64,000 nt of DNA from Ostreococcus lucimarinus (lineage: Eukaryota). The stretch lies in NCBI GenBank assembly GCA_000092065.1, contig CP000582.1; one strand, given 5' to 3'. Each line of letters opens with the position of its first letter. Positions within the stretch are counted from its first letter, which is position 1. The position numbers were made by a program, and so were the translations under genes. Shown in pieces: positions 5,684-58,606 of this stretch. The notes under the pieces were generated by a model. The model was not told the DNA's origin, searched no databases, and saw nothing but the letters and a program-made list of their open reading frames with translations.

Positions 5684-5806
5684 CGCGCGCGCGTCGACGC
5701 GCGACGCGCGCGCGACGGCCGCGTCGCGCGAAGCGACGTAAAGTGACGCGTCGATTCGTCTCAACGCTAACCGTCGCGTCAGAGCGCGACGACGCGCGCG
5801 CGACGG

Positions 5807-6924: not shown

Positions 6925-7018
6925 TCCGAACTCCACACCGCGCCTCGTCGGCGTCGCTCGTGAGACGGTAGACGGACGGACGTAGCGACGCACCTCGCGT
7001 CGTCGCTCGCGAGCGACG

Positions 7019-8389
7019 ATGCGTCCGAGCGATGCGTCGGCACGTCGAAATCCGTGCGGGACGCGCAAGATGCCATCGGGACAAACACGAGAACGTTCGC
7101 GACGAGACACGCGCGCACGCGCGGCGAATAAGGCGAAGAAAGCGGTGGGTGAGAGAACGTTTGTCATAGAACCGTTTCACGCCATCGTGGGGGATCGAAA
7201 CGGGCGACGGGCGTTGAGACATAGAGATTTTGAAGAGGTGCAGCGCGTGGACGCGCGAGGGAGCGGCGGCGTGGACGCGCTACGCGAGGCGCTCGAGCGC
7301 GAAAAGCGCGCGCACGCGAAAATCAAAGCTGAACTTAGCGAATTAGAATCGCACTACGCGAGTGACTTGGAAATACGCGCGATGAAGACGAAAAAATTGC
7401 GGTTGAAGGATGCGGTGGCGGCGCTCGAGCGAGACGTGCGGCGCGCTGAATCGTCCGAGGCACTCGGCGCGGGCTCGTACGGGAAAGTTTGGAAGGCGAG
7501 AGATTCAAAAACGGGTGCTGAGGTGGCGGTGAAGATCGAACCGGTCGATGATAGTGCGAACGGTGTGGCGAGTGCGCTTGGGCGAGAGTTTGAGTTGATG
7601 CGTCGAGTCAAAGCTTCCGATCCGCGATGTTTTCCCACGCCGTTGTTTTTCGGGGAACAAAGCGTCATGGGCAAACGTTCGCGAGTGTTGGTCATGGATT
7701 TGCTCGGCTCTAGTTTAGAAGACATCTCACAAAGCGTGATGCTTGGCACTGGATTTACGCGAGTGACGACGGCGCGGATCGCGAAGCGGCTGTTTACGGC
7801 GCTCGAAGCGATGCAGCGAGTCAGCGTCGTTCACGGCGACATCAAGCCGGACAACTTGTGCACAGAAGTCCAAGCGAACGACGGCAAGAAAAGGAATGGA
7901 ATTCTCCTCGTCGACTTTGGAGAAGCCGTGATTTTCGACGACCCATCGTACTCGCCGCGCATTCATGAGGAAGTCCCTCGGCATCTTTGGCGCGGCACGT
8001 GGCTCTTCAGCAGCGCCAACGTCGACGGCGGCTCTGCTCTCGCCCCTCGTGACGATTTGGAGAGCGCCATCTTCACCCTCGCCTACCTGCGCACTGGTCG
8101 TTTACCATGGACCCACGTCATCGATGATTTCGGCGACACCGAGCTCGACGTGCGAGTTTTAGCTCCAATCAAGCGCGCCGTCGATTCCGGCGCCGCGTTG
8201 CTCTCGCCTCGCGGCGCCGAAGCCCCGGCGCCCGAATGCGACGACGCCGACGTCGTCTTCTTCCACCGCGTACTCACCCACGCTCGCGGTTTAGCCATAG
8301 AAGATCTTCCCGATTACCAGTTTTTGCAGCGATGCGTCCAGGATTGGCGGGACGCTTTGGACGCGCCGTACGACTGGCAACGGCGCTGA
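7019..8389 (+). CDS. casein-kinase-I-like Ser/Thr protein kinase with N-terminal coiled coil
   Basis: LGAGSYGKVWKARDSKTGAEVAVKIE (Gly loop, VAVK), HGDIKPDNL, LVDFGEA, PRDDLESAIFTLAYL (CK1-like substrate lobe). About 120 aa of coiled-coil/basic N-terminus. Stop TGA verified at 8387-8389. Confidence 0.8.
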   Translation: MRPSDASARRNPCGTRKMPSGQTRERSRRDTRARAANKAKKAVGERTFVIEPFHAIVGDRNGRRALRHRDFEEVQRVDARGSGGVDALREALEREKRAHAKIKAELSELESHYASDLEIRAMKTKKLRLKDAVAALERDVRRAESSEALGAGSYGKVWKARDSKTGAEVAVKIEPVDDSANGVASALGREFELMRRVKASDPRCFPTPLFFGEQSVMGKRSRVLVMDLLGSSLEDISQSVMLGTGFTRVTTARIAKRLFTALEAMQRVSVVHGDIKPDNLCTEVQANDGKKRNGILLVDFGEAVIFDDPSYSPRIHEEVPRHLWRGTWLFSSANVDGGSALAPRDDLESAIFTLAYLRTGRLPWTHVIDDFGDTELDVRVLAPIKRAVDSGAALLSPRGAEAPAPECDDADVVFFHRVLTHARGLAIEDLPDYQFLQRCVQDWRDALDAPYDWQRR

Positions 8390-17221: not shown

Positions 17222-17933
17222 CGATGACGTCGTCCGCGCGCACCACCGCGCGCGCGTCTCGCGCCGCCGAGCGTCGACTCGAGCGCAATCACCCACGACG
17301 CGCGCGCGCGCGTCGCTCGTTCGCGCGCTCGCGTCGCGCGCGCGCCTCCGGACCGCCGCTTTCGTCGCCGCGCGTCGTCGCGCGTCGTCGTCGACGCCGA
17401 GACGTTCGATTTCGCGCGCATCCACCGCGCCGACGACGCGATCTCACCGCCCGCGCTCGCCGCGCAGACGCGCAAACGCGCCCCTTCTTTTCGTCCCGCG
17501 CGCCTCCCGCGCCCGGCGTCCCGCGCCCGCGTCGCGCACTCGCGCCGCGCGCCGCGCGCGACGCGCGCGCGTCGATCCCCTCGCGCGCGCGCGCGTCCGA
17601 CCGACCGCCTCCACGTATTCCGCGCGCGAAACGCCCATCAAAGTGGAATCAGAACCGACGAACGCCGATCGTCTCGCGCGATGGCGTTCGCGACGCGCCG
17701 AGTACGGCGTTCGCGACGCGCGTCGCGCGCTAAATTCGCGAGTCCCGCGCGTCGAGTCGCGACCGGTCGCGGGGGCGCGGGCCCCGCGACTCTTTGAATT
17801 CTTAGACGTTTCAGACCTTGAATACGAGATCATCGATCGTTCGGGACTCAACAGCGTGGGACTCCCCATCGGCGCGATTCAAATTCGCCCGTTGGCCGCG
17901 CTTCGGTCCCCTCGCGTCACAGCGCGACGCGAC

Positions 17934-20900
17934 ATGTCGTCGCCGGCGAAGGAGAACCCCGCGAGCGGGGACGGTGGCGTCAAGACGCCGTCATCGGTGC
18001 GCGCCGCGGGCGAGCGCGCGATCGCGAGCGCGACGAGATGCGAATCGCGACGACGATGACGACGCGGTTTGATTTGAACGCGCGTCGGATGGACGAATGC
18101 GGGGACGACGATGGCGCGCGCGCGCGCGAACGCGAGACTGACGGAGACGACGAACGGATTCGAACGTAGATATTGAAACGACAGTCGCGATCGGCGCTCG
18201 CGGCGTCGCCGTCGTCGCAGGCGGTGTTCGGGGAGAATGGGTCGGCGGCGCGGTCGACGCGCGCGACGCGCGCCTCGGCGCGAAGAGATTCGTCGGCGAG
18301 TCAAGGCGAGGGTGCGCCGGCGTCGCCGGCGTTCACGAAACGAAAGAAGCAGCGACAGTCGATGGGGCGACGCGTGTCGTTCGCGGATCCGGCGCAGTTG
18401 GAGAGCGTGCGAGAGTTTATTAAGGAGGAGGAGGAACGAGAGAAGAGCGGAGAGTCGTACCAGAGCGGCGCGCAGAGCGAGGGTGTGCCCGCGGGGTTCG
18501 GACTCGTGGAAGAGACGAGCGTGGACGTGATACCCATGGTACAAGGTGATCGCACGGAGACGTTCGAGTTTAAGGCTGCGCAGGAGACTTTGACGACGAA
18601 CGTCGCGGCGGCGGGAGAAGGGACGCCGTCGCCGCTCGAGCGTGGCGATGGAGTATCTTTTTCCTTGTCTCCGGTCATCGAGAGCGATGGTGACGCGTCG
18701 AATAGCGCCCAATTAAATAGTGAGGGGAAGCACACGCCGGGCAAGCGACGCGCGAGCATTGGACGCGTGGCGACGCCGAACTCGGCGGATCAAACGGGGA
18801 CGTTTACGTTTAACGCTTCGCAGAATATGGATGAAGTCACGGGTGAGGTACCGACGATGGGTGCGTTAATCGACGCCGACGACGTGACGGAAAATATCAC
18901 CGGTGCTGTTCCGTCGTTGGCGAATCTTTTGAGCGCCGATGAGTCGCCGCTTGGGTACAGACCGACGCCGACGCGGGGCTCCAAGGCGGACGCGACGGAG
19001 GACATCACGGGCACTGTGCCGTCGCTCGCCGCGCTCGCTGACGAAGACGAGGAACAAAACGCCTCCGCGGCTCAGAGTGATCAAGAAGGTGGTGAGATGG
19101 ACATGGACATGGGTAACACCACCGACGGTCTTCCCACGTTCGATCCGTTGGTTGACGCCACGCAACGCGCCGTCGATCAGGCGCACGCGAGCGCGCTCAA
19201 CTTGGCAAACACTGTGATGATGGACGAAGCGACGATGGCGTTCACTGTGGGTGCGCCCACGCCTAGTTCCGTCGCGCCCGGTCCGACGCCTTCGTTGACG
19301 TTTGCATTCGACGATAAGAAGGATAACCGAGCGAGCGTTGGGGCGCCGCCGCCATCCGTCACCGCAAACACGCGACCGTTCAATTTGACCGATTCCACGA
19401 ATTTGGATTTGCAGCGCCAAGCCAAGGGTGGCATGGGCACCGATACCTTCAACTACGTCTACGGACCGAACGGTGATATGGTACCGACTGAGGGTACGAC
19501 CGCGACGCAATCAGTCGCCGCGCCGCAACCCTCCGCGATGGATTTTCCAACCGCGGAAGTCACGGGTGCTGACGTGCAGGTGGCTGTCGGGGTCACGCCC
19601 GCGAATACCGCCGGTGTCACGGCGACGCCGAACACTGACGGATCCATCGCGAGCTCACACGATGGCTTTACGCCTGGTGACGAGTCTTTGCGCATGGCGG
19701 AGCTCTTGCGTCAAAAGCAGCACGGCGACGAGGCGTTGATGAGCATGAGAAAGGTGTACCAAGATAGAACGACACCGATGCACGGACGTTACGGCGCGCC
19801 GCCGGCGATGCAAGCGTTCACGCCTTCGAGGACGATCACGATGGGTGGTACCAATTTCATGCAGTTTGGTGGTATCGGTACGCCGGGCGCAGCGATGCAC
19901 AACCCGCTCTTTGGCACGCCTGGCGGTCACACGGGCACGATGTTGCAAGGCCTCCCCACGTCGCTTCCGCCGATTCCGGACGCCTTGATGCACTCCAAAC
20001 CGATCGATTTGGAGACGTTCTTCTACGCTTGTGAGATTTCCTTCATGGAAGCGAAGAACTTAGGACGTCGTTCATCCATTGCCATGGGCGCGCTTGCCAC
20101 AGCGCCGCCGCCGGAGACGCAACCCGAAGCTTTGAAGCTGTGTTGCCTGACCGCACCGCTCATCGAAGCGCTGGAAGGGTTCCACGAGCAGCTCCAAGAG
20201 CGAATGACGACGCTCACTAGCGAAACGGACAAGTTGCGATCGACAGTCGAGGCGACGCAGCCGCCATTGTTACGTTACGCCGCGTCCGACGATCCGGCGC
20301 ACGTCAACGAGTTGCGTCGTGCGGGCAAGGCGCTGAAAAAGGAATGCCAACTCGCGGCTAAGGAGCGATTCGCGCAGCAGCGATTGGAGACAGAAGAACT
20401 CGTGCGCGAAAGTTTGAACTTCCACAGCGATATCCTGGCGAAGAGCGCGCAAAGCATCGCGAACTCGCGAGCCATCGCGGCGGAGGCGATTTCGAGCGCC
20501 AATGGCCACATCATCAAGCTCCGGGCGCAGCGAGCGGCGAGCTCTAAGCGTGCTGATGCGGCGAAATCCGCCTCAGCGACCAAGGAACAAGTTTTGGAAG
20601 CTCTTGCGATCAAACGCGCTGCGATAGCCGCCGCACGTCGCGCTTTAACGACCAGTGATGAAAATTTGGTTCGCATGAAGTCGCGAAAGACGACCATCAA
20701 GTCTGAGCGCGAGCGTTTGCAAGAAGAACTTGACGCCATGCGTGAGGCGCAAGACGCGGCGGCGGACGCGACGGTGAGTTTCAAATCGTTCGGCGGTGTT
20801 GACATGGACGACACGCCTTCTCGATTACGCAGAGCGAGTCAAGTGAGGCTTCGCGCCAAGGCAAAGAATGCTCAAAGTGCGAGCGAAGAGCTCGGCGTGT

Positions 20901-21586
20901 TGAGCGGACTCGCGCCGTGGCGTCTCGAAGGCGTCGGTGGACCGGTGGGGGCGGAACTGACGATGCGTGTCGGTACACTGTTCCGAGTGACGCTCGATGC
21001 GAGCACTGGTGCCGGTCGTGTCACGTTGATCGACGGTCCGGAGACCACGCCGAAGGGTGGACGTCAGTTCGCCGCGGCTTTGGCTGGCGCGCCTATCGCT
21101 TGGGACGAAGACGCCGTGCCCGCAGGACATGTCGCTGGTGTCTTACAAGAGCTCGCGCCGAAGCTTTCTCGCGCCGAGCGCGTGCTGGAAGAAACTGAAG
21201 GATGCCGAAACGAGTTTCCTCGACTGAATAGAATCAAGTGTAGCCCCAATGGTGTGCTCGAGCTCACCTTCGTCGATTTTGCCAACGAGCGCTTGTTTAG
21301 CGTCAAGCTCAACATGATGGGTGGTGCCTATCCCTACGGAGCTCTGAGCCCCGAGGTCACGGTGCAACTCACTGGGAAGAAGGGTGTCAGCGAGTTACCG
21401 AGCGTTGAAGCGATTCAACGCGCCGTGAACGCCGTGCCCGTCGGACCGCGCCGTTTGACAAACGTGTGCCGCATTTTAGATTCCATAGTCAGCACGGGGA
21501 AGAACGCTTTGACGTCGTTCGCGTCCATGCCCGCCCCGGCACCGCGAAGACCGTCACACGCACCTTCGCTCCTGTATGCTCGTTAG
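17934..21586 (+). CDS. kinetochore scaffold KNL1/Spc105-like protein; two exons
   Basis: Proposed join(17934..17996,18185..21586). Track ORF 18173..21586 starts at TTG right at a CAG acceptor that is preceded by GAGACTGACGGA. Upstream ATG 17934 gives MSSPAKENPASGDGGVKTPSS followed by GTGCGC. Main exon: KRKKQRQSMGRRVSFADPAQL (PP1-docking RVSF in KNL1 context), three ITG-x-VPSL repeats with MELT-like cores (MDEVT, ENIT, EDIT), long central coiled coil, globular C-terminus. The main exon is well supported; exon 1 and the family call are moderate. Confidence 0.55.
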
Positions 21587-21620: not shown

Positions 21621-23000
21621 TCACAGACTAAAGCTAGTAGCCGCGCCGTCGAACGCTATACGAAGCTCCGGCGGTGAAGCTGCCGCGACGCGCGCTTCAT
21701 CACCGTCACCAATCGTTCTAAACGCTAAACAGTGCACACTTCGCAGTCGTTCGTAGAGCACGCGATCGAAGCCCAACTGTCGAAGCGCGGCGCGCCATTC
21801 GCTAAGGATGGGGAGGGCTTTATGTCCGCAGTGCCCTTTGTCCGTCGAATGCGGGGTGATGATGAAAAGTAAGCCACCGCCGCGATTTTTCAACGCTAAA
21901 CGCGCGCGCCGCACCATCTCTCCTCGCTGTTTCGGCGTTGGAAGGTAACTTAGAACGAGACTGAACACGACAACGTCCGCGGCGTGCTGCGCGACGGCTT
22001 CGAGGCGTCGATCCGTCACTCTTTGCGCGTTACCAAACTCCACCTTGAGCCAATCGCATTCGTACACCGATGGTACCGATGGCATTAGATCGCACGCAGT
22101 CGTCTCTACGCTCAACCTTCCCGGCCACGGTCCTTTAAAATGCAAATTAAAGTAATCCCAACAAGAGCCGACGTCTAAAATCTTTATCGACGTCCCCGCG
22201 GCGGCGCTACGATCGGGTGTCCCTCTCGGCCCATCGCTTTCGACGACGTCTCGCATCATCATTTCTATCGTCGCTTTTGACGACGTCATCGCTCGCTTCA
22301 ACTCTCTCGCGCGCCGTTTGTTCGCCAGTTGCCACGAAAAGGACGTCGTCGCCGCCTTCAACGACCCTTCGCCATCGCTAAAATACCGCCCCATCGCGTC
22401 GACGCACCATTCAAGCGCGCTCACCACCCACGCGCGATTCCCAACCTCCGTAGCGGCTTCCGCGTACGCGCGCAACGCCGGTTTCTGTTCCACGATCGTT
22501 CGTTCCCACGTCTCGTCGACGTCCTCAGCCTCTCGCGCCGCCGCTCTCAACGCTCGATGATGATTGACGATCACCCCTCGTCGCCACACCGCCCGCGCTC
22601 TGTCCCGCGCGCTCTTCGCCGTCGCGCGCGCGACTTCTCGTCTCAACGCCTCGTCGTCGCCGTTCGTTTTCGCCGCCTCCGCGAAGACGCCCGCGCACCG
22701 CGCGCGCCGGTCCGCCGCCGCGTTCGCCGCCAACGCCTCCGTCGTCTCTCGCACCCGCGCCAGCACCGCCGACCGCGCGCCGTCGTCCGCGCCGTCGTCC
22801 AGCGCATCTTTTTCAGCGACAGCCAGGGCGAAGAGCGCTCGCACGACGCGCTCGCACGACCGCGAATCCCCGAACGAGGCCCCGACGTCGCGCTCGATCT
22901 CGCGGCGCTCCTCCGCGGACGCGCGCTCGAGCGCCGCGCGCGCGGCGCGGCGCAAGCGGCGCGCGCAGTGCGCGAAGAGCGACGCCGGGAGCGCATCCAT
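21621..23000 (-). CDS. BMT2/SAMTOR-family S-adenosylmethionine-dependent methyltransferase
   Basis: C-terminal 460 aa of track ORF 21621..23918; the rest of that ORF is antisense to NOC3. ATG at CAT 22998-23000, MDALPASLFAHC. Matches BMT2/SAMTOR: IKILDVGSCWDYF vs LRVLDVGSCFNPF; DWLKVEF; VVFSLVLSYLPTPKQR vs VIFSLLLEYMPSAEQR; LLFIITPHS vs LVLITPDS. Confidence 0.7.
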   Translation of the reverse strand: MDALPASLFAHCARRLRRAARAALERASAEERREIERDVGASFGDSRSCERVVRALFALAVAEKDALDDGADDGARSAVLARVRETTEALAANAAADRRARCAGVFAEAAKTNGDDEALRREVARATAKSARDRARAVWRRGVIVNHHRALRAAAREAEDVDETWERTIVEQKPALRAYAEAATEVGNRAWVVSALEWCVDAMGRYFSDGEGSLKAATTSFSWQLANKRRARELKRAMTSSKATIEMMMRDVVESDGPRGTPDRSAAAGTSIKILDVGSCWDYFNLHFKGPWPGRLSVETTACDLMPSVPSVYECDWLKVEFGNAQRVTDRRLEAVAQHAADVVVFSLVLSYLPTPKQRGEMVRRARLALKNRGGGLLFIITPHSTDKGHCGHKALPILSEWRAALRQLGFDRVLYERLRSVHCLAFRTIGDGDEARVAAASPPELRIAFDGAATSFSL

Positions 23001-23124
23001 GGGACACTTCGCGGCGCGCTGTGACGCCCCGCGCGTCGACGACGACGCGCGAGGCGACGCGCGCGCGTCGGACGCGCGGTATAATAATCGCGACGACGTC
23101 GTCGACGCGCGACTCGAGCCGGGC

Positions 23125-25917
23125 ATGAAACGCGGGAACGCGGGCGATGGGAAGCGCCGCCGCCGGCTGGGCAAAACGAACAAAGCGCCGCCGCCGCGCG
23201 CGCCGGTCGTCGAACGCGATGCGAACGACGACTCGGAGAGCGACGTGAGCGATGAGGATGTGAAATTCGTCCGACGGAACGCGGCGTACGCGTCGTTCAT
23301 CGCGAAAGGGAGCTTTGAGGAGGAAGAGGGGGGGAAGCGACGGCGAGCGGGACGCGAGCGCGACGCGGACGACGACGATTTGGAGGGGGCGCACGCGCGC
23401 GCGTTGGCGGAGAAACGACGAAAAGTTGAGGAGGAGAAGAAACGGATCGCGAATTTGCCGGATGAGGAGAAACCGATGCGGTTGCCGGTGAAACGATTGG
23501 ACGGGACGGTGGTGCGAGACGCGGTGGCGCCGCCAGACGCGCCGGCGAGCGACGAAGAGGAGGCGGGAGGAAGACGGAATGACGCGGACGAGGGCGAGGG
23601 ACGGTGGAAAAACGTTGGCGATGGCGAAGGTAAGGGTTTGGGCAAGAAGGCGCTGGCGAGAGAGATTCGAGAGAGTGATCTTGGGCGGGAGACGACGAAA
23701 TCAAAGAAGAACGAAAAGTGGTGGGAAAAGCGCGAGGAGGAAGAAGCCGCGGCGAAGGCGAAGGCGAAGAAGCGCGCAAAGGGAGATTCCGACAGCGCTA
23801 GCGACTCAGAAGACGCGCGAGCGAACGACCCGGCGATGAAACTCGCGGACAAGCGTCGAGCCGAGCGATTGGCTCTTGAGGCGGAGATGAGCGCAGAGGC
23901 GCGACGCGAGAGCGTCAAGGTACGAATTGCGTCGACGTGTCAGAGCGTCATCGAGGATCCAGAGTCGAAGTGGAAAGAGCTCAAAGACATCGGCACGCTT
24001 TGTGAAGACCGAGACTCGGAAATCGCTCGATTAGCGTCGCTATCGCTCACCTTGGTCTACCGCGACATTTGCCCGGGCTATCGCATTCGACCTCCGACGG
24101 AAAAGGAGTTGTCCATGAAGGTGAGTAAAGACGTGCTCAAGACGCGCGCTTTCGAGACGGGCTTGCTTGAGCACTACAAGTCGTACGTGAAAATGCTAGT
24201 GAGATGCTCTGGGGCGAAGAAATCTCGCGCACAGCGTGGCAAAGGCGGACCAGATGCGGAGTCTGCGATCAAGTGTTTGTGCGCCTTGCTCATCGGATTG
24301 CCGAGCTTCAACTATCGCACGGATATTTTATCCGCCATCGTGCCCGTCTTCGATAAGCGAGACACCAGTCACGCGCAGATCGTCACTGATGCTCTGGTTG
24401 AGGTCGTGTCTAACGACATTCGCGGCGATCTCACGCTCGAGGCGTTGCACATGACGGCGCAGCTCGTGAAGCAGAGTAAATGCAACATTCAGCCGTGCGC
24501 GTTTGCGTACTTCCTCAAGGTTCGCTTCGATGAGGGCATATTAGTGCCTATGGTGCGTGACAGGAAAGAAATTCTTTCTCGTAAGCAGACGTTCAAGAAG
24601 AAGCAGGAAGAGCGTGATAAGATTCGCAGAGCTCGCGCGGAGAAGACGAGGAAGCAACAAGACAAGGAACGCATGAAATCATTCGGGCACGTCGCGGACT
24701 CTTCAGACGATAGCGAAGACGAAGAGGCGGCGTTTCATCGAGATTTAGACGAAGGTTCAGCGGTGATGAGTTTCGGCGAGAAGAAAAAAACGCAGAGTCG
24801 ATTATTAGAGGCGACTTTCGAGATGTACTTTCGCGTATTGAAGAACGCCGCGAGTCCGGCGCCGACGCCCGGGTTGCCGCTCTTGAGCGCCGCGCTCACG
24901 GGTTTGGCAAAGTTCACGCATTTAATCTCCATCGATTTCTTGGGTGATCTCATGGAAGTGTTTAGAAAGTTATTGGCCCAGGAAGACTTGCTCTCGGACG
25001 CGCTCAAGGCGCAAACTTTGCTGACGGCGTGTGAAATTTTGAGCGGTCACGGAGAGGTTTTGCAAGTGGATACCGGGGAATTCTACCGTCAGCTCTATAC
25101 GATGCTCGGCAAGCCCAGCGTAGGTGCAGCGGGGTGGCAAGATGGTATGTCTATAACCGATCAACGCGCGCTCAATCACGGCACGCTGCGCGTTCGTGCC
25201 ATTCAAAAGTTCATCGGCGGTTTCAAGCAAGTCGATCAAGCACGCATGGCGGCGTTTTCCAAGCGCCTCACCTCGGCGTCGATCGGCATGGAAGCTGGCG
25301 AATGCCTGGGTTCGCTCGGTGTCGTCCGCCAAATTCTCGCGTCGTATCATCGCGTGCGTAACTTGCTCGAGAACGAGCGGATTGGGAACGGAGTGTTTCA
25401 GATGGATTTAGACGATCCCGAGCACGCACAAGGCATGTCCGCCGTGCTCTGGGATCTTTGTCTACTTTCGCAACACTACCATCCCACGTGCGCGGCGGCG
25501 GCTCACGAGGTTGCCAATTTACCACTCTCGGGCGCGATAGCTCCACCTCCCGGCTCACACGCCCCGAGCGAGCTCGCAAAGGCGTACTCCACGCTCCGTG
25601 GAGACTTCAACCCGCCGATTCCCGAGCCGCCGACGCAACGCAACAAACCGCGAGCGCCGATCGATCAGAAAAAGTTCGTCGACGCCTACGACGAATCTTT
25701 CAAACGGAACGTCATCAGTAAGCTCGGCGACACCGTCGACACCGTCGAAGCGCGTGCGTTCCGCCGACATTTCCGTCGCGTTCGAGCGCACGGGGAAAAC
25801 TTTCGGTTACGAAGGGAGCGCGACGCCCTCGCGCGAAAAATTAGCGCCATGCGCGCGCACGAGCTCGAAGCCAAGTCGAAGTCGAAATCTAAAAAATCGT
25901 CGTCCAAACGCACGTAG
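23125..25917 (+). CDS. NOC3: nucleolar complex protein 3 (NOC3; CBF/Mak21 family)
   Basis: Track ORF starts at 22564. I place the start at ATG 23125 (MKRGNAGDGKRRRRLGKTNK, basic N-terminus typical of NOC3). Conserved LSLTLVYRDICPGYRIRPPTEKE and the CBF-domain LLSQHYHPTCAAAAHEV, acidic patches, K-rich C-terminus. Confidence 0.75.
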   Translation: MKRGNAGDGKRRRRLGKTNKAPPPRAPVVERDANDDSESDVSDEDVKFVRRNAAYASFIAKGSFEEEEGGKRRRAGRERDADDDDLEGAHARALAEKRRKVEEEKKRIANLPDEEKPMRLPVKRLDGTVVRDAVAPPDAPASDEEEAGGRRNDADEGEGRWKNVGDGEGKGLGKKALAREIRESDLGRETTKSKKNEKWWEKREEEEAAAKAKAKKRAKGDSDSASDSEDARANDPAMKLADKRRAERLALEAEMSAEARRESVKVRIASTCQSVIEDPESKWKELKDIGTLCEDRDSEIARLASLSLTLVYRDICPGYRIRPPTEKELSMKVSKDVLKTRAFETGLLEHYKSYVKMLVRCSGAKKSRAQRGKGGPDAESAIKCLCALLIGLPSFNYRTDILSAIVPVFDKRDTSHAQIVTDALVEVVSNDIRGDLTLEALHMTAQLVKQSKCNIQPCAFAYFLKVRFDEGILVPMVRDRKEILSRKQTFKKKQEERDKIRRARAEKTRKQQDKERMKSFGHVADSSDDSEDEEAAFHRDLDEGSAVMSFGEKKKTQSRLLEATFEMYFRVLKNAASPAPTPGLPLLSAALTGLAKFTHLISIDFLGDLMEVFRKLLAQEDLLSDALKAQTLLTACEILSGHGEVLQVDTGEFYRQLYTMLGKPSVGAAGWQDGMSITDQRALNHGTLRVRAIQKFIGGFKQVDQARMAAFSKRLTSASIGMEAGECLGSLGVVRQILASYHRVRNLLENERIGNGVFQMDLDDPEHAQGMSAVLWDLCLLSQHYHPTCAAAAHEVANLPLSGAIAPPPGSHAPSELAKAYSTLRGDFNPPIPEPPTQRNKPRAPIDQKKFVDAYDESFKRNVISKLGDTVDTVEARAFRRHFRRVRAHGENFRLRRERDALARKISAMRAHELEAKSKSKSKKSSSKRT

Positions 25918-26054: not shown

Positions 26055-26762
26055 ATGGCGTGGCAATCGCGCGTGCGCGATATGGAACGCGCGTACGAGC
26101 AGTCGACGACGTCGATCGCGACCGCTCGTCGACGCGGCGCGACGAAGTCGCGCGACATTGGTCGCGGCTTGCAGAAAGATTACGTCAATATGATCCGCGA
26201 CGACGTCGAATCCGCCTCGGGCGATCGCGCGAAAACGTTCGCGACGAACGGTGTTTCGTCCTCGACCGCCGCGGCCGCGGACTCGGGGACGCCGAGCAAA
26301 GATCCAGAGCTAAAAGTTAGAGACGGCGACGTCGGCGCGAGCGTCGACGACGAGAGCGCGCGCTCTGGGCGCGAAGACGTCCCGGGACTGGATGATTTCG
26401 GCCCAGTCGCGGTAGATGATGATGAAGAACCCGTGCTGACGCGGTTGAAACCGAACGAGGACGTACGGCGGCCGAGTCTGTTGTTGAGGGCGCTAGATTT
26501 TTCGCGTCGCGTCGGCTTGATTGGCGCGTCGATTTTGTTTGGGATATTTCTCGTCTTTGTAGCGATGTCGGTGTACGAAGAGATGCAAACGAGTGGAAAC
26601 CACGATCCACTGAGACCGAAGTTCGCGCCGGGGGTTGCGGTGACGGTCGACGAGCGGACGGTGGCTGAGGAAGCGGCGGCGCGAGGCGAGAGCGCGAAGA
26701 ATGCGTTTTTAGACGTCGAACGGGAAGCGGGCGTGGACGGCGCGAGTGCGATGAACACGTAG
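26055..26762 (+). CDS. hypothetical single-pass membrane protein
   Basis: First ATG of track ORF 26028..26762. One hydrophobic helix (LIGASILFGIFLVFVAMSVY). No recognisable domain. Confidence 0.4.
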   Translation: MAWQSRVRDMERAYEQSTTSIATARRRGATKSRDIGRGLQKDYVNMIRDDVESASGDRAKTFATNGVSSSTAAAADSGTPSKDPELKVRDGDVGASVDDESARSGREDVPGLDDFGPVAVDDDEEPVLTRLKPNEDVRRPSLLLRALDFSRRVGLIGASILFGIFLVFVAMSVYEEMQTSGNHDPLRPKFAPGVAVTVDERTVAEEAAARGESAKNAFLDVEREAGVDGASAMNT

Positions 26763-26839: not shown

Positions 26840-27706
26840 TTACGGCGTTCGGCATAGCCAGAAATGTATGAATGGCTGCGCGACGACGACGGCGAGCAAC
26901 ACGTAGTTTTGTGACATGCTCTGCGAATAACCGCTGTGTCTCGCCTCGCTGAAGATGATTCGCTTCAAAGTTTTCGCCATGAACACCGCGTTGCACAGCG
27001 CAGACCAAATGAGGAAAAACCAAAACACGTACGTCTTGTTGAACATTTTCGACATGAGCGTCATCGAGCCGTACGTAAAGGTGTACCCGACGTACGCCGC
27101 GACGTCGAGAATCGGCGCCGACACGATGTGGTTCGCCGAGCTCGTCGAACGCAGCGCCACCCAAATAAACGCCGACTCGCCCGCCCACAGCAGCCCGCTC
27201 CACCACGCGTGCGTCGCGAGCGCCTCGGGCGTAAACGAACCGCTCTTGGACGAAAACACTTCGCGAATCGAAGCCGTGAGCACGTACGTCCAGAACGCCA
27301 TGAGTGGAATGTACAAATCCGGCGCGTTGATATCGTTCCGCGGCGGTTTGTACGCCGTGCCTCCCGCCACGCTCTCGGGCAATCGCGCCCACGAACCTTT
27401 ATGCAAAAACGGACACAACACCAATCGCATCTTGTGAAACACGTACGACTCGGTGACGTCGAAGTACGCCCGCATCGACGCCGTGCTGAAATACTTGGCG
27501 TAATTCGAACTCACGAACGACGCGCCGTCGTTCAAAAACTTCCCTCCGTACACCCCCAATCCCGCCGCGGCTAAGCTCCGCGGACTCGTCGGCGCGCCGA
27601 ACCCCCCGCCGAACCCTCCGCCGAACCCTCCGCCCTGACTCGAGCTCGCCTCGCGCCCCCCCATCCCGTCGTACGCGCCCGGCGCGCGCCCGTACCCCCC
27701 GTCCAT
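26840..27706 (-). CDS. YIF1: Yif1 (Yip1-interacting factor) family Golgi membrane protein
   Basis: GFGGGFGGGFG N-terminus, YGGKFLNDGASFVSSNYAKYF, YFDVTESYVFHKMRLVLCPF and four or five C-terminal TM helices typical of Yif1/Hrf1. Stop TAA verified at 26840-26842. Confidence 0.75.
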   Translation of the reverse strand: MDGGYGRAPGAYDGMGGREASSSQGGGFGGGFGGGFGAPTSPRSLAAAGLGVYGGKFLNDGASFVSSNYAKYFSTASMRAYFDVTESYVFHKMRLVLCPFLHKGSWARLPESVAGGTAYKPPRNDINAPDLYIPLMAFWTYVLTASIREVFSSKSGSFTPEALATHAWWSGLLWAGESAFIWVALRSTSSANHIVSAPILDVAAYVGYTFTYGSMTLMSKMFNKTYVFWFFLIWSALCNAVFMAKTLKRIIFSEARHSGYSQSMSQNYVLLAVVVAQPFIHFWLCRTP

Positions 27707-28317
27707 CGCTCCCGGCGCGCCGTACGCCGTCGCCGTCGCCGTCGCCGCGCCGTCGCCGCGCGCCGCCGCGCGCGTCCCGTTCGCGTTCGCCGCGTTCGCC
27801 TCGTTCGCCCCGTGTCCCCATCCCGGCGCCGCGCTCTGGCTTTGCCATCCCCCGTGATCACTCTGCGCCGCGCGTCGTCCGTCGTTCGTCCCTCGTCAGT
27901 CGTCGCGACGCGCGAGACGCGCAAAGTTTCGCGAATCCGTGCCGTTCGCGCTTTCAAACATTCATCGCGCGCGCGCTCGCGACGTCGCGCGCGTCGTCGC
28001 GCGCGCACCTGCGGCGCGCTCGACCATCCCTGCTGCGCCATCGTCGCGCGTTCGCGCGGTCCGTCCTCGCGCGCGGTCGCGCGTCGCGCTGCGTCGTCGC
28101 GATCGCGACGGGACGACTCGACTTTATGCTTCGTCTCACTGTTTGCCCATACGAGAGACAGATTTCGTCCCGAACCCTATCGCGCGACGCGCGTCGTCGC
28201 CGCACTCGCGCGCGCGACGATCGACGCGCGCTCGACGAGCGGTCGACGCGCACGCGCGCGCGGTCGACGTCCGGCGCGGTCGCGACGTCAGAAGTCGCGA
28301 TCGCGACGACGACGACG

Positions 28318-28806
28318 ATGCGAACGAAGGCGAAGGCGCTGCGAGCGCTGATGACGGCGCGGCGACGCGCGTACGCCACGAGCGAGGCGCTGAGCGCGGC
28401 GAGACCGACGGAGACGCCCTCGGCGTCGTACGCGGAGGCGCAGAAACGCGGCAGGGGGTTCTACCGCGCGGTGTGTCGCGAGGTGCCGTGGGTGCTGGAT
28501 AATTACGCGCTTCGCGAGGTCGCCACGGAGACGCACGTGCGACGCGTGCTCAAGGATTTGATGCGAGCGCACGCGGAAAAGATCGATGGGGCGTCGAACG
28601 ATGACGCCGTGCGAGCGGGACTGCTCGATCGGGCGCTGATGCGAGGACGCGAGGAGTTGGTGGCGCTCGAGGCGCACCACTTTCAGCGACACCACATGAT
28701 CACGCAATTCGTCAACGCCAAGTGCGTGGACGCGGTGCGAGGACGCGACGGCGAGAGCGTCTTCTTGAGCGAATTTTTGAGCGGCGGGCGGAAGGAATTG
28801 AACTGA
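28318..28806 (+). CDS. NDUFA6: NADH dehydrogenase 1 alpha subcomplex subunit 6 (NDUFA6/B14, LYR family)
   Basis: ATG verified at 28318, inside track ORF 28126..28806. RGRGFYRAVCREVPWVLDNYAL matches the NDUFA6 LYR motif [22 protein letters not shown]. Downstream HHFQRHHMITQFV resembles RTHVMRFF. Basic presequence-like N-terminus. Confidence 0.7.
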   Translation: MRTKAKALRALMTARRRAYATSEALSAARPTETPSASYAEAQKRGRGFYRAVCREVPWVLDNYALREVATETHVRRVLKDLMRAHAEKIDGASNDDAVRAGLLDRALMRGREELVALEAHHFQRHHMITQFVNAKCVDAVRGRDGESVFLSEFLSGGRKELN

Positions 28807-32697: not shown

Positions 32698-33894
32698 TCA
32701 CAAGTTGACGAGGATGGGGTAGTCGCGCAAGAGCTCGGTTTGGGTGAGGACGTCGCCGTCTTCCTGCGGCGTCCATAAGACTTCGACGGCTTGTAAAGCC
32801 TCGACGCGCACGGCGCCGAGACGCTTGAGCGCGGTCTTTAAGTCGTTGGCGTCGGTGATGTCGGGCATTTTGACGCCGCCGTCCGCGGCGGCGATGATGG
32901 TGACGAGGATGTAGTCGTTGGTGTCGGCGGCGGGGTCGACGCCGACGGTTTCGGCGCGGCGGCGAGCGTTGACGTTGACGAGGGTTTCTTTCTCGAATTT
33001 CCCGCGCTCGTCGATGGAGTAATCGTTGAACGTCTCTTCCGCTTGTTCCGGACCGCGACACACCTTGGAGGCGGCGTAGCCGTAGACGCAATACTCGGGA
33101 TTACGCAACAGCGCGAGCGCCGTCTCCGACAGCACAAAGTGCAAACCGTCGGGCGACGACGTGTCGGCTTTGTCCGCGATGCGCTCCAAATCCTTCTGCA
33201 ACGCGCGCGCGGAGCCTAACAGGCCAACCTGTATCTTCACCACGCTGATCGAGTCCCCGCCCGCGCTCAATCCGTCGCCGAACCCGCCGCGTCCCGTCGC
33301 GTTCCGCAGCGCGTTCGACGCCGCGAGCGCCAGCATCGCAAACAAAACGAGGTTAAAGAACCCTCCGCCGCCGTACCCCATGCCGTACCCCATGCCGTAC
33401 CCGTACCCAAGTCCCGGTCCGATGAAAAACGACGACGTCCGCGTCCCGCTTCCCGCGCCGCTCGCCCGCGGCGACGGCGCGCCCAGTCCCGCGCCCCGCG
33501 TCGACCCCATCCCCGAGCTCCCGAGCCCCCGAAACGACGGCGACGACATCGCGCTCGCCGCTCGAAAGCTCCCACCGCCCATCCGTCCCCCGCTCCGCGC
33601 CGCGAGCGCCGCGTCCGGCGTCGACATCGCCGCGATCGCCGCGATCGCCGCCGCGATCGCCGCCGCGCCGACCCGTTCGCGCGCCCGCGCCGTCCACGAC
33701 GACGACGCGCGCGCGCGCGCGTCGTCGTCGTCCGTCCCGTCGGCGTCCCGTCGTCGCCATCGCGCGCGCGTCGACGCGTCATCGCGCGTCCGCGTCGTCG
33801 TTCGTCGCGCCTTTCGCGTCGAACCGCGCGTCGTCGTCGCGCGCGCGCGCGCCTCGTTCGCGCGTCTCGGCGCGCGCGATGACACGACGCGCAT
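32698..33894 (-). CDS. DUF1517-family (plant FLAP1-like) putative plastid membrane protein
   Basis: C-terminal domain VVKIQVGLLGSARALQKDLERIADKADTSSPDGLHFVLSETALALLRNPEYCVYGY matches DUF1517. Gly-rich GYGMGYGMGYGGGGFF segment. Start placed at CAT 33892-33894 (MRVVSSRAPRR, transit-peptide-like); the rest of the track ORF to 34110 overlaps the neighbouring gene. Start is uncertain. Confidence 0.6.
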   Translation of the reverse strand: MRVVSSRAPRRANEARARATTTRGSTRKARRTTTRTRDDASTRARWRRRDADGTDDDDARARASSSWTARARERVGAAAIAAAIAAIAAMSTPDAALAARSGGRMGGGSFRAASAMSSPSFRGLGSSGMGSTRGAGLGAPSPRASGAGSGTRTSSFFIGPGLGYGYGMGYGMGYGGGGFFNLVLFAMLALAASNALRNATGRGGFGDGLSAGGDSISVVKIQVGLLGSARALQKDLERIADKADTSSPDGLHFVLSETALALLRNPEYCVYGYAASKVCRGPEQAEETFNDYSIDERGKFEKETLVNVNARRRAETVGVDPAADTNDYILVTIIAAADGGVKMPDITDANDLKTALKRLGAVRVEALQAVEVLWTPQEDGDVLTQTELLRDYPILVNL

Positions 33895-33989
33895 CGCGCG
33901 CGTCGTCGTCGCGCGACGCGCCGAGACGCGCGACTCGACGCGCGCGACGCGATTCGCGTCACTGTGTGCCGCGACGCATCGAATCGCCG

Positions 33990-35168
33990 ATGGCGTCGCC
34001 GTCGCGCGCGCTCGCGCTCGCGCGCGTCGTCGCGCTCGCGACGCGCGCGCGAGGACGCGCGTCGCGCGTCGCGCCGTCGCGCGTCGCGTCGTCGCGCGCC
34101 GGCGGAACACCGGCGGGCGAGGCGCGACGACGACGCGACGACGACGGCGACGGCGACGGCGACGACGACGGCGCGCGCGACGGCGCGACGGCGCGACGGC
34201 GACGGCGGACGATCGACCAGAGGCGCGAGCGGGGATTCGGGAGCGAACGGAACCGCGCGGCGACGCGGACGGCGACGAATGCGTGGGAGAATCGCGCGCG
34301 CGGGTTCACGTCGAGGTCGAACGACGGCGCGTTCGCGAACGACGAACGCGAGGGCGACGGTGGGGACGAGGGACGGCGCGGAGGAGCGTGGGAAGATGAC
34401 GAGTTAGAGCGCGTGAGTAAGATACTGGCGCGGCGAGGGACGTGCAGTCGACGGGAGGCGGAGCGGTTGATCGAGGACGGTCGCGTGCTGGTGGACGGCG
34501 AGACGATCGAACTCGGGTTCAAGGCGCGCGCGAACGCGAGGATCGAGATCACGGGGGAGGGGACGAGATGGTTGAGGGAGAAATTGACGGTGATCGTGAA
34601 TAAACCGCCGGGGTACGTCAGTAATTTGCCCGCGGAGGGGGAGATCGCGGCGGCGGCGTGCGTGGAGCCGCGAAACGCGTGGATGCGAGCGATGGAGGGG
34701 ACGCCGATGGATGATTTAAAGCGCGTCACGCGAGACGTTTCGTCGTTCAACGTGTGCGGACGGTTGGATAAAGACAGTCGAGGGTTGTTGATTCTCACCG
34801 AGGACGGTGCGCTGGCGCGGAGCGTCATCGGCGGGAACGGAGTGTTGAAAAAGTACGTCGTCACGACGGACGCCGACGTGCGAGAGTCCCACATGCGTTC
34901 GCTCAACGGCCGAGTGCAACTGGACGGCGTGGAACTACTGCCCATGAACGTCCAACGTCTCGGTCACGGATCGCGCACGCTCGAGTTCAACCTTCGCGAG
35001 GGGAAGAATAGACAAATCAGACGCGTGTGCGAGAAATTCGGCTTGCGCGTCGTGGATTTACATCGCGTACAAATCGGGGACGTCCAGATCGGGGACTTGC
35101 CCGAGGGCGCGTGGAGATTGATGAGCGAACGCGAAGTCCGCGAGCTTCGCGAACTCGAGTTCGAATGA
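33990..35168 (+). CDS. RsuA/RluB-type pseudouridine synthase with S4 domain, probably organelle-targeted
   Basis: S4 domain ERVSKILARRGTCSRREAERLIEDGRVLVDG, catalytic GRLDKDSRGLLILTEDG (Asp), KKYVVTTDADV, GKNRQIRRVCEKFGLRVVDLHRVQIGDV. Track ORF starts at ATG 33879. Internal ATG 33990 gives a presequence-like MASPSRALALARVVALATRARG and leaves a 95-bp gap to the divergent DUF1517 gene. Confidence 0.75.
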   Translation: MASPSRALALARVVALATRARGRASRVAPSRVASSRAGGTPAGEARRRRDDDGDGDGDDDGARDGATARRRRRTIDQRRERGFGSERNRAATRTATNAWENRARGFTSRSNDGAFANDEREGDGGDEGRRGGAWEDDELERVSKILARRGTCSRREAERLIEDGRVLVDGETIELGFKARANARIEITGEGTRWLREKLTVIVNKPPGYVSNLPAEGEIAAAACVEPRNAWMRAMEGTPMDDLKRVTRDVSSFNVCGRLDKDSRGLLILTEDGALARSVIGGNGVLKKYVVTTDADVRESHMRSLNGRVQLDGVELLPMNVQRLGHGSRTLEFNLREGKNRQIRRVCEKFGLRVVDLHRVQIGDVQIGDLPEGAWRLMSEREVRELRELEFE

Positions 35169-40600: not shown

Positions 40601-41117
40601 CGCGATTCCCCACGTCCCGCACCCACGACGGCGCTCGCAGCGCGTCGACGTACGCCCGCGTGTACGCCGCCCGCGTCTCGCGTTCGTCCTCATCCTCCGC
40701 GCGCCGCGTCGTCTCGTCCGCGTCCTCGTCCGCGTCCTCGTCCTCGTCCGCCGCGCGCGCGCTTCTTCGCGCGATACTTTTTCGCGCGTCCTCGCTCGCC
40801 GTCGCGCGCGCGTCGTCGCGCGCGTACTCTCGCCACACCACCGGCGCGTCCGTCGCGCGCGTCGCCTCGTCGCGTCGCGCGCGTCGCGCCGTTCGCGTCG
40901 CGACGACGGCGCGCCACGACGCCGGCGCCGGCGACGTCGACGTCGACGTCGACGTCGACGTCGACGCGCGCGTCGCGTCTCGCGCGTCGCGCCGCGCGCG
41001 GGCGCGCCGCGTCCCCATCGCGCGCGTGTGCGGGCAACGGTCGGGCGGGCGCGCGCGCGTTTTCGACGTCGCGCGCGTGCGTCGCGTGTCCACGTATTCG
41101 CGTCCGCGGAGGCCCAT
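37644..41117 (-). CDS. giant coiled-coil protein (about 1000 aa of heptad repeats) with N-terminal hydrophobic anchor
   Basis: Stop TAG verified at 37644-37646. Continuous Ala/Glu/Arg/Leu-rich coiled coil from about residue 330 to the C-terminus. Upstream of it lie WVAALAVGATAVVAPFVM and an acidic DEEEDEEDE block. Start is uncertain: candidate CATs at 41115-41117 and 41307-41309; the track ORF top at 41336 is GTG. The N-terminal 5' region contains GACGTC and 24-bp tandem repeats. Confidence 0.6.
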   Translation of the reverse strand: MGLRGREYVDTRRTRATSKTRARPPDRCPHTRAMGTRRARARRDARDATRASTSTSTSTSTSPAPASWRAVVATRTARRARRDEATRATDAPVVWREYARDDARATASEDARKSIARRSARAADEDEDADEDADETTRRAEDEDERETRAAYTRAYVDALRAPSWVRDVGNRARGEHRIDERAWDADGAEDEEEDEEDETTTSSENEEEEEEEEDAPSKAATKTVVGVSASARVCVHAEDEPKSGERGVVVDPRRANRVAAAAVAAPAARSAAAISAKWVAALAVGATAVVAPFVMRTSGLNSLAPGSSNGVQFRDFGLSSARRWMYDGDRSLLESSSDFETLQRRLAEMEQRLRDANEEIDRAREDAKAAAKMRRKLDEARTEASEANAREAAAVADRDAVWKALRGQLADAAKARAAIETESLAIATDLEQAKTALDAALTSQSSCGGAVDEDLSAALDDAEANKRTLQEKVDNLSNTVDRLNRQLSELSASKSAELDAAEERDRLREETRRVTETLASKEQRLGELERRLSTSEIDLDVLSKELIDRETKLRDALARAEEMESASSLGEDEFARKLAVLQKELETSKRRAEDAAAASDEAKNARDAALDELRKAQIEAQSEADKFERARQASLRETSAKVTQLENEHGKLLTQLNRAEAALSEYIVVSTAHVSAVVSEQKMAFDGETKALQSQLEGNSTLATQLEQTLKLTREEHELTKVALETMEQDMLESQEQCMKEVVRTATELSESNAALTQAREALDALELEMSEYKNRTTTLDVDISNAVDTGDEIDVDALVTARDELKQALDAAREERQKLLTRLAFAEEERAFRRNESIKFQEAATEAGRLRNEAESRRLALEDELERVKAEVKEAEQSRAEAESAQKRAEEQRVLALRAVEEERKMAEIAVAEAREAVNSNQQALKAQIEAEAVAAQRAEEEEAARLRAEAEAAERARVAEAEEALARAKERELEEAERLRIAAVESARLRAEAEEAERARLEATRLEAEAEERRRVAAEEEQRQRLIAAAEQEQRRVAAAAAAKREEEAALAAASRAEALRERERAQAEMVKAKQEQAEKRVQKLLKAAKKAYRLAEDAHARAKTLQDAVSSVPLVEREDALARAKIAADEAAAAQEKWDKTYALAKEAMRSLE

Positions 41118-41744
41118 GATCACGACGCGCGAGGGCGCGGACGCGACGCGCGCGCGGCATGGGGTCAAATCTCGAGTCACGATCGGTCGATCGCAGGCGG
41201 TCGGTCGCCGCGGTCTGGCGGTCGGTCGCCGTGGTCTGGCGGTCGGTCGCCCCGCCCCGCGTCGTCGTCGTCGCCCGCACCGCACTGCCGCACTCTCGCG
41301 TCGAACCATGGTCGCGCTCGCGCTCACGCAAATCACCGTCGCCCGTCGATCCGCGCTCAGTCGCGATGTGCGAGGTAAGTTTCGCGTTGGATCGGGCGCG
41401 CCGACGACGCGCGCGCGCGCCGCGTCGCGTCGCGTCGACGCGAGCAGTCGCGACGCGCGAATCGCGTCGCGTGGGATACGCGGTGGATACGACGCATCGG
41501 AATGATGCGCGAGGGCGCCGAACGCGCGAGGGCGCGGACGCGACGCGCGCGTGGAAACGTCGTGCGGAATACGGAGGATGCGCGCGTCGCGGACGGGACG
41601 CGGACGGCGCGTCGCGCGCGCGGCGACGGCGACGAGTCGGCGTCGATCGCGCGGAGGCCGATCGCGGGTTCGGTTCGAACGACGCGCGCGAGGGGGTCGG
41701 GGCTGGGTCGGGACTCGTGGATTGGGCGCGACCGAAGCGGGACG

Positions 41745-48446: not shown

Positions 48447-49278
48447 CGTCGACGACGCTCGCTCGTCGTTCGTTTCGCGTCGCCGCGCGGTGGATTCGGA
48501 CGCACTGACCTAACGTCCTCCTCGCGCGCGCGCGTTCGAGGGTCCTCCTCGCGCGCGCGGGACGTCGGGACGTCGGGACGGGGGCGTGGACGCGAGGTCG
48601 GGCTCGGACCTCGATCGTCGGCGCGTTCGAGTGCGGACGCGCGGCGCGGAACGCTCGTCTCGAGGGCGCCGTCGGATTTTCGCGATCTTCGCCCCGGCGT
48701 CGGCGCGTCCGCGCTCGATCAAAGTTTGCAGCGCTTTTCGGCGCCGACGATGGGCTGTCCACGCGTGGGCAAACAGTCCGAAACGCGGTCGGTCGCCCAT
48801 CGTCGACGCCGACGCCACGTCCGCGCGTCGGCGCCGCGCGTCGCCGCACATCGCGATCGGCGCGCGGCGCGACGGCGACGTGCGGCGTCGACGGCGCGCG
48901 TCGACGCGAAGCGCATCGTCATCACCGCCGTCACCGCGCGCGCGCGAAGAGCGCCTCGAAGCGCCGTCGCGGCGTCGCTCGCGCGCGTCGCATCGCGCGC
49001 GCGCATTGTCGCGCCGTCGCCGCGCGCGCTTTTCGCGGCGTCGATCGCGGGGCGCTCTTCGCGCGCGCGAGGGCGCGACGACGACGACGCGCGTCGGAAA
49101 CGGACGAGGGAAATATCACCGCGCGGTGCGCGGCGATCGCGCACGGGGGGGGCGACGCGCGCGCGGCATCGCTCGCGAACGACGCGTCGGTGTCGTTCGA
49201 ACTCCACTGGACGATCGGCGGATTGATTTGATTTGATTGATCGATCGATCGATTCGGATCGCGCGGACGACGATCGCG

Positions 49279-58489: not shown

Positions 58490-58538
58490 GCGTGAACACG
58501 CGCGTCGCAGTCTGCGGAGGCGTCCGCGCGCCGTCACA

Positions 58539-58606
58539 CGTCGCCTCGCTCGCGCGCGTCGCGCGACCTCGCTCGCGCGCGTCGCGCGACCTCGCTCGCG
58601 CGCGCG
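58539..58606. repeat. about 3 x 23-bp tandem repeat GTCGCGCGACCTCGCTCGCGCGC
   Basis: Direct repeat read from the sequence at 58539..58606. Lies in the 140-bp interval between the divergent MoaC and helicase starts. Confidence 0.6.

Follow-up and report, generated by a model that had tools for sequence, protein, structure and literature searches.

The stretch analysed here, referred to below as the window, comprises 64,000 nt of one strand of contig CP000582.1 of Ostreococcus lucimarinus (assembly GCA_000092065.1), with an overall guanine plus cytosine (GC) content of 0.62. It carries a gene for a class I methyltransferase-fold protein of the SAMTOR/BMT2 family and, facing away from it on the other strand, the gene for NOC3, a nucleolar complex protein (Table 1). 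The two start codons are separated by 124 bp, so that the genes, which are divergent and less than 1 kb apart, form a head-to-head pair. A sequence-only reading of this DNA had placed the starts at 23000 (minus strand) and 23125 (plus strand), had described the genes as a BMT2-like ribosomal RNA (rRNA) methyltransferase and NOC3, and had proposed that a shared bidirectional promoter co-regulates two genes of 60S subunit biogenesis. The head-to-head layout is real, and both starts and the 124-bp interval are borne out by the sequence and by the N-termini of orthologues. As to its meaning, the locus probably consists of two ordinary single-exon nuclear genes that diverge from a short spacer in the generic layout of a compact genome, rather than of a dedicated ribosome-biogenesis device.

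Table 1. Features of the divergent gene pair and its surroundings. Positions are those of the window unless a related locus (labels beginning with L) is named; aa, amino acids.
Feature	Position	Strand	Details
Spc7/KNL1-like kinetochore gene	18362..21586	+	Pfam Spc7 2.6e-10; convergent with the methyltransferase gene; part of the same conserved block
SAMTOR/BMT2-family class I methyltransferase-fold gene	21621..23000	-	459 aa plus stop; ATG begins at 23000, stop codon ends at 21621
Methyltransferase domain	21708..22190	-	aa 271-431; motif I DVGSCW and residues contacting S-adenosylmethionine
SAMTOR-like N-terminal helical region	22311..22580	-	aa 141-230; aligned by phmmer to human SAMTOR 37-135; helical in the AlphaFold2 model
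N-terminal extension of about 140 aa	22581..23000	-	conserved across Mamiellales; helical, Arg/Ala-rich; DNA GC 0.73-0.77
CCATGG palindrome	22997..23002		at the methyltransferase start; plus-strand ATG at 22999 in frame with NOC3
Divergent spacer	23001..23124		124 bp, GC 0.74, CpG-rich; presumed shared promoter and 5' untranslated region
Five copies of CGACGCGCG	23030..23111		both orientations; including a palindrome at 23055-23070
TATA-like run tataataat	23080..23088	+	GC-rich sequence instead in the closest relative, L001
CATG palindrome	23124..23127		at the NOC3 start; minus-strand ATG at 23126 in frame with the methyltransferase
NOC3 gene	23125..25917	+	930 aa plus stop; ATG at 23125, stop ends at 25917
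235-aa open reading frame	26055-26762		between NOC3 and YIF1; no Pfam match
YIF1 gene	26840..27706	-	Pfam YIF1 3.6e-52; beside NOC3 in all longer Mamiellales loci
Clusters of CGACGCGCG	5688-5798, 17296-18272, 23030-23111, 27869-28371, 33703-34086, 40807-41688, 48822-49298, 55273-55476, 58499-58584		
Spacer in L001			130 bp; 86%-identical relative
Spacer in L003			110 bp; Ostreococcus-type
Spacer in L018			170 bp; O. tauri chromosome 2
Spacer in L006			146 bp; M. commoda chromosome CP001332
Spacer in L008			141 bp; Micromonas-type
Spacer in L013			257 bp; Mamiellales-type
Spacer in L014 and L015			406 bp; GC 0.56
Spacer in L009 and L012			about 450 bp; Mamiellales-type
Ion-channel gene	L006 7635-10952; L008 7628-10933; L009 2997-6161; L014 8704-11907		between the methyltransferase and Spc7 genes
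Neighbour of the family member in L016	5952-6938 / 7001-8299		SKI8/WDR61-like WD40 gene, head to head with the family member, 62 bp; picoeukaryote, GC 0.68
Neighbour of the family member in L019			1208-aa protein with a faint cyclic nucleotide (cNMP)-binding Pfam match
Neighbour of the family member in L021			none; family domain fused to a flavin adenine dinucleotide (FAD) monooxygenase

Identity of the two genes

The methyltransferase-fold protein matches the Pfam family Bmt2 (PF11968) over aa 231-384 with 30.3 bits, against a cut-off of 20 (E 4.8e-7). The match is partial, extending over profile positions 23-153 of 221, and a precomputed match to the same family is present on nearly all orthologues. 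The likeness to Saccharomyces cerevisiae Bmt2 is seen here through this profile, above its curated cut-off, and a glycine of motif I is conserved at the position of the yeast loss-of-function mutant G180R (PMC3664796). In a phmmer search of the PDB the best match was human SAMTOR (9o5d_A, E 7.7e-25), with fly SAMTOR (7vkk) at E 1.3e-15. A single alignment places aa 141-431 of the query on residues 37-322 of human SAMTOR (hSAMTOR) and takes in the helical N-terminal domain as well as that of the methyltransferase. When an AlphaFold2 model was used as a Foldseek query, the top 19 matches were all SAMTOR, followed by nucleomethylin (NML) and by bacterial methyltransferases that form N1-methyladenosine (m1A) at position 1408 of 16S rRNA; the model is of moderate quality (mean predicted local distance difference test, pLDDT, 62.7) and served solely to confirm the SAMTOR fold, not for surface analysis. 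Judged by sequence, the algal protein is best regarded as a clear SAMTOR homologue and as a SAMTOR-type member of the family. The family membership given in the sequence-only reading thus stands on the Pfam and SAMTOR matches, whereas the rRNA m1A activity implied by its name for the gene can only be presumed.

The architecture is that of animal SAMTOR (human BMT2/C7orf60; Drosophila SAMTOR, dSAMTOR; PDB 9o5d, 7vkk, 7vkq, 7vkr), with N-terminal helices followed by a class I fold, a motif I composed of GSC and an aromatic residue, and retention of the S-adenosylmethionine (SAM) contacts D304, D316, S347, L348 and Y352. These contacts were taken from a published list (PMC10883374) and transferred by alignment to dSAMTOR and hSAMTOR. 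The dSAMTOR residues G132, D150, L151, D162, F163, S196, L197 and Y201 correspond to G278, D304, L305, D316, W317, S347, L348 and Y352 of the algal protein, and V349 and L353 are further mapped contact positions. G278, D304, D316 and Y352 are invariant in an alignment of 28 sequences of diverse relatives. Motif I reads GSCWD here and GSCF/YN in SAMTOR, where it is altered from GxGxG, and the tryptophan (W281) is invariant in Mamiellales. Among 149 family proteins (the top representatives together with the Mamiellales set) the motif is DVGSCY in 78, DVGSCW in 35 and DVGSCF in 11. The algal protein has a motif of the same type as hSAMTOR with a different residue, Trp, at the position of hSAMTOR F175 (hF175).

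Other features set the algal protein apart from animal SAMTOR, to which it is only about 28-30% identical. It is basic, with an isoelectric point (pI) of 9.2 and a net charge of +9, and it begins with an extra 140 aa that lie outside the SAMTOR alignment. L8, H11 and L16 of this extension are invariant among 11 Mamiellales orthologues, and its pLDDT is 67-86 over most of its length, above that of the catalytic domain.

Identity between orthologues across Mamiellales ranges from 37 to 99%; the O. tauri protein XP_003075139.2 (labelled 'Putative methyltransferase, DUF3321') is 55% identical and that of M. commoda 42%. These values mark the source as an Ostreococcus-like alga of the Mamiellales, of a kind frequent in marine metagenomes. 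Joint Genome Institute (JGI) pipelines label the orthologues '25S rRNA (adenine2142-N1)-methyltransferase'. Profile searches of a word-indexed protein database, carried out with an alignment of 11 and then of 28 sequences, gave matches confined to Mamiellales and a few other marine eukaryotes; an exhaustive search of representatives returned 878 relatives. One family member (P0177, NCBI MDB0053655.1; positions 7001-8650 in L014/L015) is labelled 'BMT2 family SAM-dependent methyltransferase [bacterium]'. Its source, a metagenome-assembled genome, appears to be mislabelled as bacterial, because the gene lies on eukaryotic contigs of Mamiellales type beside NOC3, YIF1, FKBP and Spc7. Elsewhere in the family the Bmt2/SAMTOR domain is fused to a FAD-dependent monooxygenase ('salicylate hydroxylase'-like) in proteins of 965-975 aa (P0029, at 6001-8898 of L021, and P0030).

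The identity of the other gene as NOC3 holds at the family level. The Pfam domains NOC3p (PF07540, 1e-28, aa 265-354) and CBF (PF03914, 3.6e-19, aa 630-793) occur in the canonical order. Compared with Noc3/NOC3L, the nucleolar pre-60S factor and partner of Noc2, the algal protein is full length, has the same order of NOC3p and CBF/Mak21 domains and shows nothing unusual; its N-terminal 250 aa are of low complexity, acidic and basic, and poorly conserved. Orthologues are found throughout Mamiellales, with identities of 95% to L001, 73% to O. tauri (where the neighbour of the methyltransferase is a NOC3 of 910 aa) and 47% to the corresponding neighbour in M. commoda, and the JGI name is 'nucleolar complex protein 3'. 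Both genes had already been annotated by pipelines. The finding is mainly the correct annotation of two ordinary genes.

Start codons and reading frames

Mechanical translation blurs the boundary between the two genes. A single open reading frame (21621-23918, 765 aa) takes in the methyltransferase and a further 306 aa encoded by the spacer and the antisense of NOC3, which confirms the fusion with about 300 aa of antisense NOC3 already remarked on in the sequence-only reading. The spacer is free of stop codons in the frames of both genes, so that NOC3 can be read from 22999 as a protein of 972 aa, and the methyltransferase from 23126. Automated callers sometimes extend NOC3 to 972 aa in this way (public entries P0312 and P0318-P0320), because the spacer is open in frame and both starts lie in CATG palindromes. 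The CCATGG at the methyltransferase start does provide an ATG on both strands, as had been pointed out; the coordinates then given for it, 22998-23001, are those of its CATG core, 126 nt from the CATG at the NOC3 start, and the hexamer itself occupies 22997-23002. It is a trivial palindrome around a start codon, CATG requiring merely a C before the ATG. The CATG at the NOC3 start is not conserved in L001.

If the 5' coding ends overlapped, with NOC3 starting at 22999, the methyltransferase starting at 23126 (501 aa), or both, there would be no non-coding spacer. The extended gene calls are consistent with such an overlap, as are the two alternative ATGs, which are in frame with no stop between, and the plus-strand ATG within CCATGG is kept in L001. 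In the spacers of M. commoda, L008, L003 and L013, however, in-frame stops lie 30-126 nt upstream of the annotated starts. The N-termini of the eleven methyltransferase orthologues align at the 23000 start and share the invariant residues L8, H11 and L16. For NOC3, the proteins of O. tauri, L001 and L014 begin, in alignment, no more than a few residues from the 23125 start. Several insertions or deletions separate the window spacer from that of L001, and by our own estimate an open frame of 42 codons is expected about 60% of the time in DNA of 74% GC. An overlap of the coding ends is thus very improbable, and the inner starts (23000 and 23125) are the correct ones, given the in-frame stops in orthologous spacers and the alignment of the orthologue N-termini.

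The intergenic spacer

A divergent gap of 124 bp is typical for the window, where gaps of 90, 140, 151, 224, 419 and 569 bp are among those that a crude gene model based on codon usage gives between divergent genes. In this genome head-to-head pairing across about 100-200 bp is the rule.

A scan for ribosome-biogenesis motifs was negative. The yeast polymerase A and C (PAC) box and ribosomal RNA processing element (RRPE) and the plant telo-box and site II element have no match in the spacer of the window or of eight orthologous loci, with the proviso that Mamiellales-specific elements may differ. Results for E2F, MluI cell-cycle box (MCB), mitosis-specific activator (MSA), G-box and CCAAT elements were negative or inconsistent across the same nine spacers, and TATAWA is without a match in any of the orthologous ones. 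The TATA-like run in the window spacer was rejected as a conserved element, being absent even from the 86%-identical L001. Scans of the whole window for Rfam families and tRNAs were empty, so that no hidden RNA gene lies in the spacer, and a scan for sigma-70 promoters and terminators, which is irrelevant to a eukaryote, gave nothing meaningful.

The sole k-mer common to all four Ostreococcus-type spacers is the 9-mer CGACGCGCG. In the window spacer its copies stand partly in the palindrome CGACGCGCGCGCGTCG, a form that the 9-mer often takes throughout the window, and in inverted arms of 18 nt (23030-23047 and 23094-23111). The window has 109 copies of CGACGCGCG, where 33.5 would be expected. 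Of these, 63 are no more than 200 bp from a predicted start codon, a zone that makes up 19% of the sequence, and 10 are near stop codons; the clusters fall on GC peaks of 0.75-0.79 at the 5' ends of genes. Given this enrichment at 5' ends across the window, CGACGCGCG is a generic promoter-proximal signature, apparently genome-wide, and not a ribosome-biogenesis element. Another palindrome, CGACGACGTCGTCG, was rejected as a candidate site because it mostly recurs inside coding (GAC)n/(GTC)n runs.

Identity between this spacer and that of L001 is 83%, as against 86-90% at four-fold degenerate sites in the genes on either side. Overall the spacer shows no excess constraint and evolves at about the synonymous rate, the L001 comparison being too close for power. 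The window spacer has no alignable conservation with those of O. tauri or Micromonas. The Micromonas spacers (L006 5855-6000, L008 5860-6000) contain tandem GGTTTTT(T)CAGCGG preceded by a (GGC)n run, and are unlike those of Ostreococcus type.

Conservation of gene order

The pairing is conserved in sister species, and so withstands the refuting condition that the sequence-only reading had set for it. Methyltransferase and NOC3 genes lie head to head in every Mamiellales locus fetched, namely those of O. tauri, M. commoda and at least six other contigs of Mamiellales type. L004 has the same arrangement, with an unreliable spacer length because the upstream gene call begins with GTG. The adjacency dates to the common ancestor of Ostreococcus and Micromonas.

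Other genes have been kept in the same block. YIF1 accompanies NOC3 on its far side, and the Spc7/KNL1-like gene has the same relative position beyond the methyltransferase in O. tauri and L003; in Micromonas-type loci it follows an inserted ion-channel gene. Because YIF1 and Spc7, which are unrelated to ribosome biogenesis, have been retained in this way, general microsynteny explains much of the conservation of the pair, and its specificity is only partial. Most simply, the pair would have been retained since any breakpoint in so short a spacer would harm both genes, whatever their functions.

Outside Mamiellales the partnership was not found: in three compact eukaryotic contigs that carry a family member, NOC3 is not its neighbour, and no upstream gene tested resembles NOC3. 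In one of these (L016) the family member faces a WD40 gene across 62 bp, which shows that this gene family, too, commonly has unrelated partners across very short divergent spacers.

A possible shared promoter

In so compact an arrangement the core promoters of the two genes would share or abut the 124-bp spacer, or extend into the coding region of the neighbour, and for that reason some transcriptional coupling is likely. Such coupling would be the default state for roughly half of the genes in genomes of this compactness. In O. tauri there are 2288 bidirectional transcript pairs, none of which is head-to-head in three plant genomes (Brachypodium, Selaginella and maize) (PMC4035068). The O. 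tauri orthologues of the genes described here are such a pair, and the pair in the window, with the same head-to-head orientation and a sub-kilobase spacer, does not differ from them in kind.

The generic layout has to be weighed against a selected ribosome-biogenesis module, in which a shared bidirectional promoter would co-express two 60S factors as in adjacent gene pairs of the yeast rRNA and ribosome biosynthesis (RRB) class. Several observations speak for the module and count against our preferred explanation. No adjacency in the block other than that of NOC3 and the methyltransferase is unbroken in all Mamiellales loci fetched, both flanks having gained or lost genes; selection for co-expression, as opposed to simple inertia, could be the cause. 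In yeasts and some other eukaryotes, genes of ribosome biogenesis show a significant enrichment in adjacent pairs, 44 of 282 RRB genes being so placed in S. cerevisiae (P 4.1e-4) (PMC3500266), and yeast Bmt2 and Noc3 are both found on nucleolar pre-60S particles (PMC3664796; PMC10068337). The enrichment would be the closest precedent for a selected pairing. The resemblance consists in the adjacency of two putative 60S genes and in the retention of the pairing across an order-level clade; the algal spacers differ from the adjacent RRB pairs (Arnone et al. 2012, PMC3500266) in the absence of the yeast PAC and RRPE elements, and the NOC3 adjacency is missing from three non-Mamiellales loci.

Taken together, the evidence makes the module a credible but somewhat unlikely explanation. 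A bidirectional promoter specific to ribosome biogenesis, as first proposed, is unsupported: the known motifs are absent, the only shared 9-mer is generic and no element of the spacer is conserved past close relatives, while the spacer as a whole changes at about the synonymous rate. Two genes of unrelated function, YIF1 and Spc7, are conserved in the same block, and the three non-Mamiellales relatives have other neighbours or none. Given some 2,300 divergent pairs, and taking ribosome biogenesis to account for about 3% of genes, we estimate that about two such pairs per genome would be expected by chance, and the present pair had been picked out by a scan for any functional coincidence. The rRNA role of the methyltransferase is, besides, itself presumed. 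Nor are the two genes known as neighbours in yeast, where BMT2 is YBR141C and NOC3 is YLR002C. The generic compact-genome layout accordingly has the better claim, and within it the locus exemplifies a bidirectional gene pair conserved throughout the order, and possibly an adjacent ribosome-biogenesis pair.

Enzyme or sensor

Yeast Bmt2 is a nucleolar enzyme that makes m1A2142 in 25S rRNA (PMC3664796), and it acts, as Noc3 does, on nucleolar pre-60S particles (PMC3664796; PMC10068337). Humans lack both the modification equivalent to m1A2142 and a counterpart of Bmt2 (PMC5699541; PMC10068337). SAMTOR proteins are only about 11% identical to Bmt2 (PMC10883374), and the early annotation of SAMTOR as a putative Bmt2 orthologue has been called erroneous (PMC11514484). 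SAMTOR acts by binding GATOR1-KICSTOR, a contact of which hF175 is part. Rag and GATOR are absent from the green lineage, and presumably KICSTOR is too.

The known mechanism of animal SAMTOR cannot operate in an algal lineage without Rag and GATOR, and a SAMTOR-type role as a TOR sensor is unlikely in the alga because these partners are lacking. Their absence, together with the Trp at the hF175 position, favours an enzymatic role on RNA. The protein would most likely bind SAM and methylate a nucleic-acid substrate, for which 25S rRNA is the leading candidate. This view has to contend with the fact that no methyltransferase activity has ever been detected for SAMTOR (PMC11514484), and with the arginine that binds the SAM carboxylate (hR95/dR73), which the phmmer alignment places in an insertion with respect to the query; an invariant arginine nearby, R189, is a candidate for its counterpart and is not aligned with it.

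The alternative to an RNA-modifying enzyme is a non-catalytic SAM sensor resembling animal SAMTOR, which would relay SAM status to growth control through other algal partners. SAMTORs are the best-scoring characterised homologues, the alignment with them includes the switch-like N-terminal helical domain, and both the GSC-aromatic motif I and the SAM contacts would suit a sensor. Nevertheless, the phenylalanine through which hSAMTOR contacts GATOR1-KICSTOR is Trp in the alga, the basic character of the algal protein differs from the non-basic ligand-site surface described for dSAMTOR, and the 140-aa N-terminal extension is absent from SAMTOR. A sensor of this kind therefore seems quite improbable.

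A more ambitious proposal joins the two questions, namely that in Mamiellales the SAMTOR-type protein is an active enzyme that methylates pre-60S rRNA, and that one promoter serves both its gene and NOC3 and co-expresses them. We consider this rather doubtful as a whole. If it were true, the SAMTOR branch, beyond fungal Bmt2, would ancestrally have been a ribosome-biogenesis enzyme and the animal SAM sensor a later co-option, and the conserved linkage to NOC3 would give the first genomic clue to such an ancestral role where Rag and GATOR are missing. A functional linkage would offer an inexpensive, testable handle on the role of the SAMTOR family outside animals, with a bearing on the evolution of the sensor from an enzyme. 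Mamiellales, which lack Rag and GATOR, keep a well-conserved SAMTOR homologue beside a pre-60S factor, and one of them, O. tauri, is genetically tractable. This hint at a non-animal role of SAMTOR-type proteins is the most interesting part of the locus.

Neighbouring genes

The gene found between the methyltransferase and Spc7 genes in Micromonas-type loci encodes an ion channel of the voltage-gated type (Ion_trans, Ion_trans_2). It is absent at that position in the window, L003 and O. tauri, which indicates a lineage-specific insertion or loss. The 235-aa open reading frame on the other side of the pair keeps its position in L001 and O. tauri (235-236 aa) and is absent in M. commoda; it may be an Ostreococcus-restricted gene.

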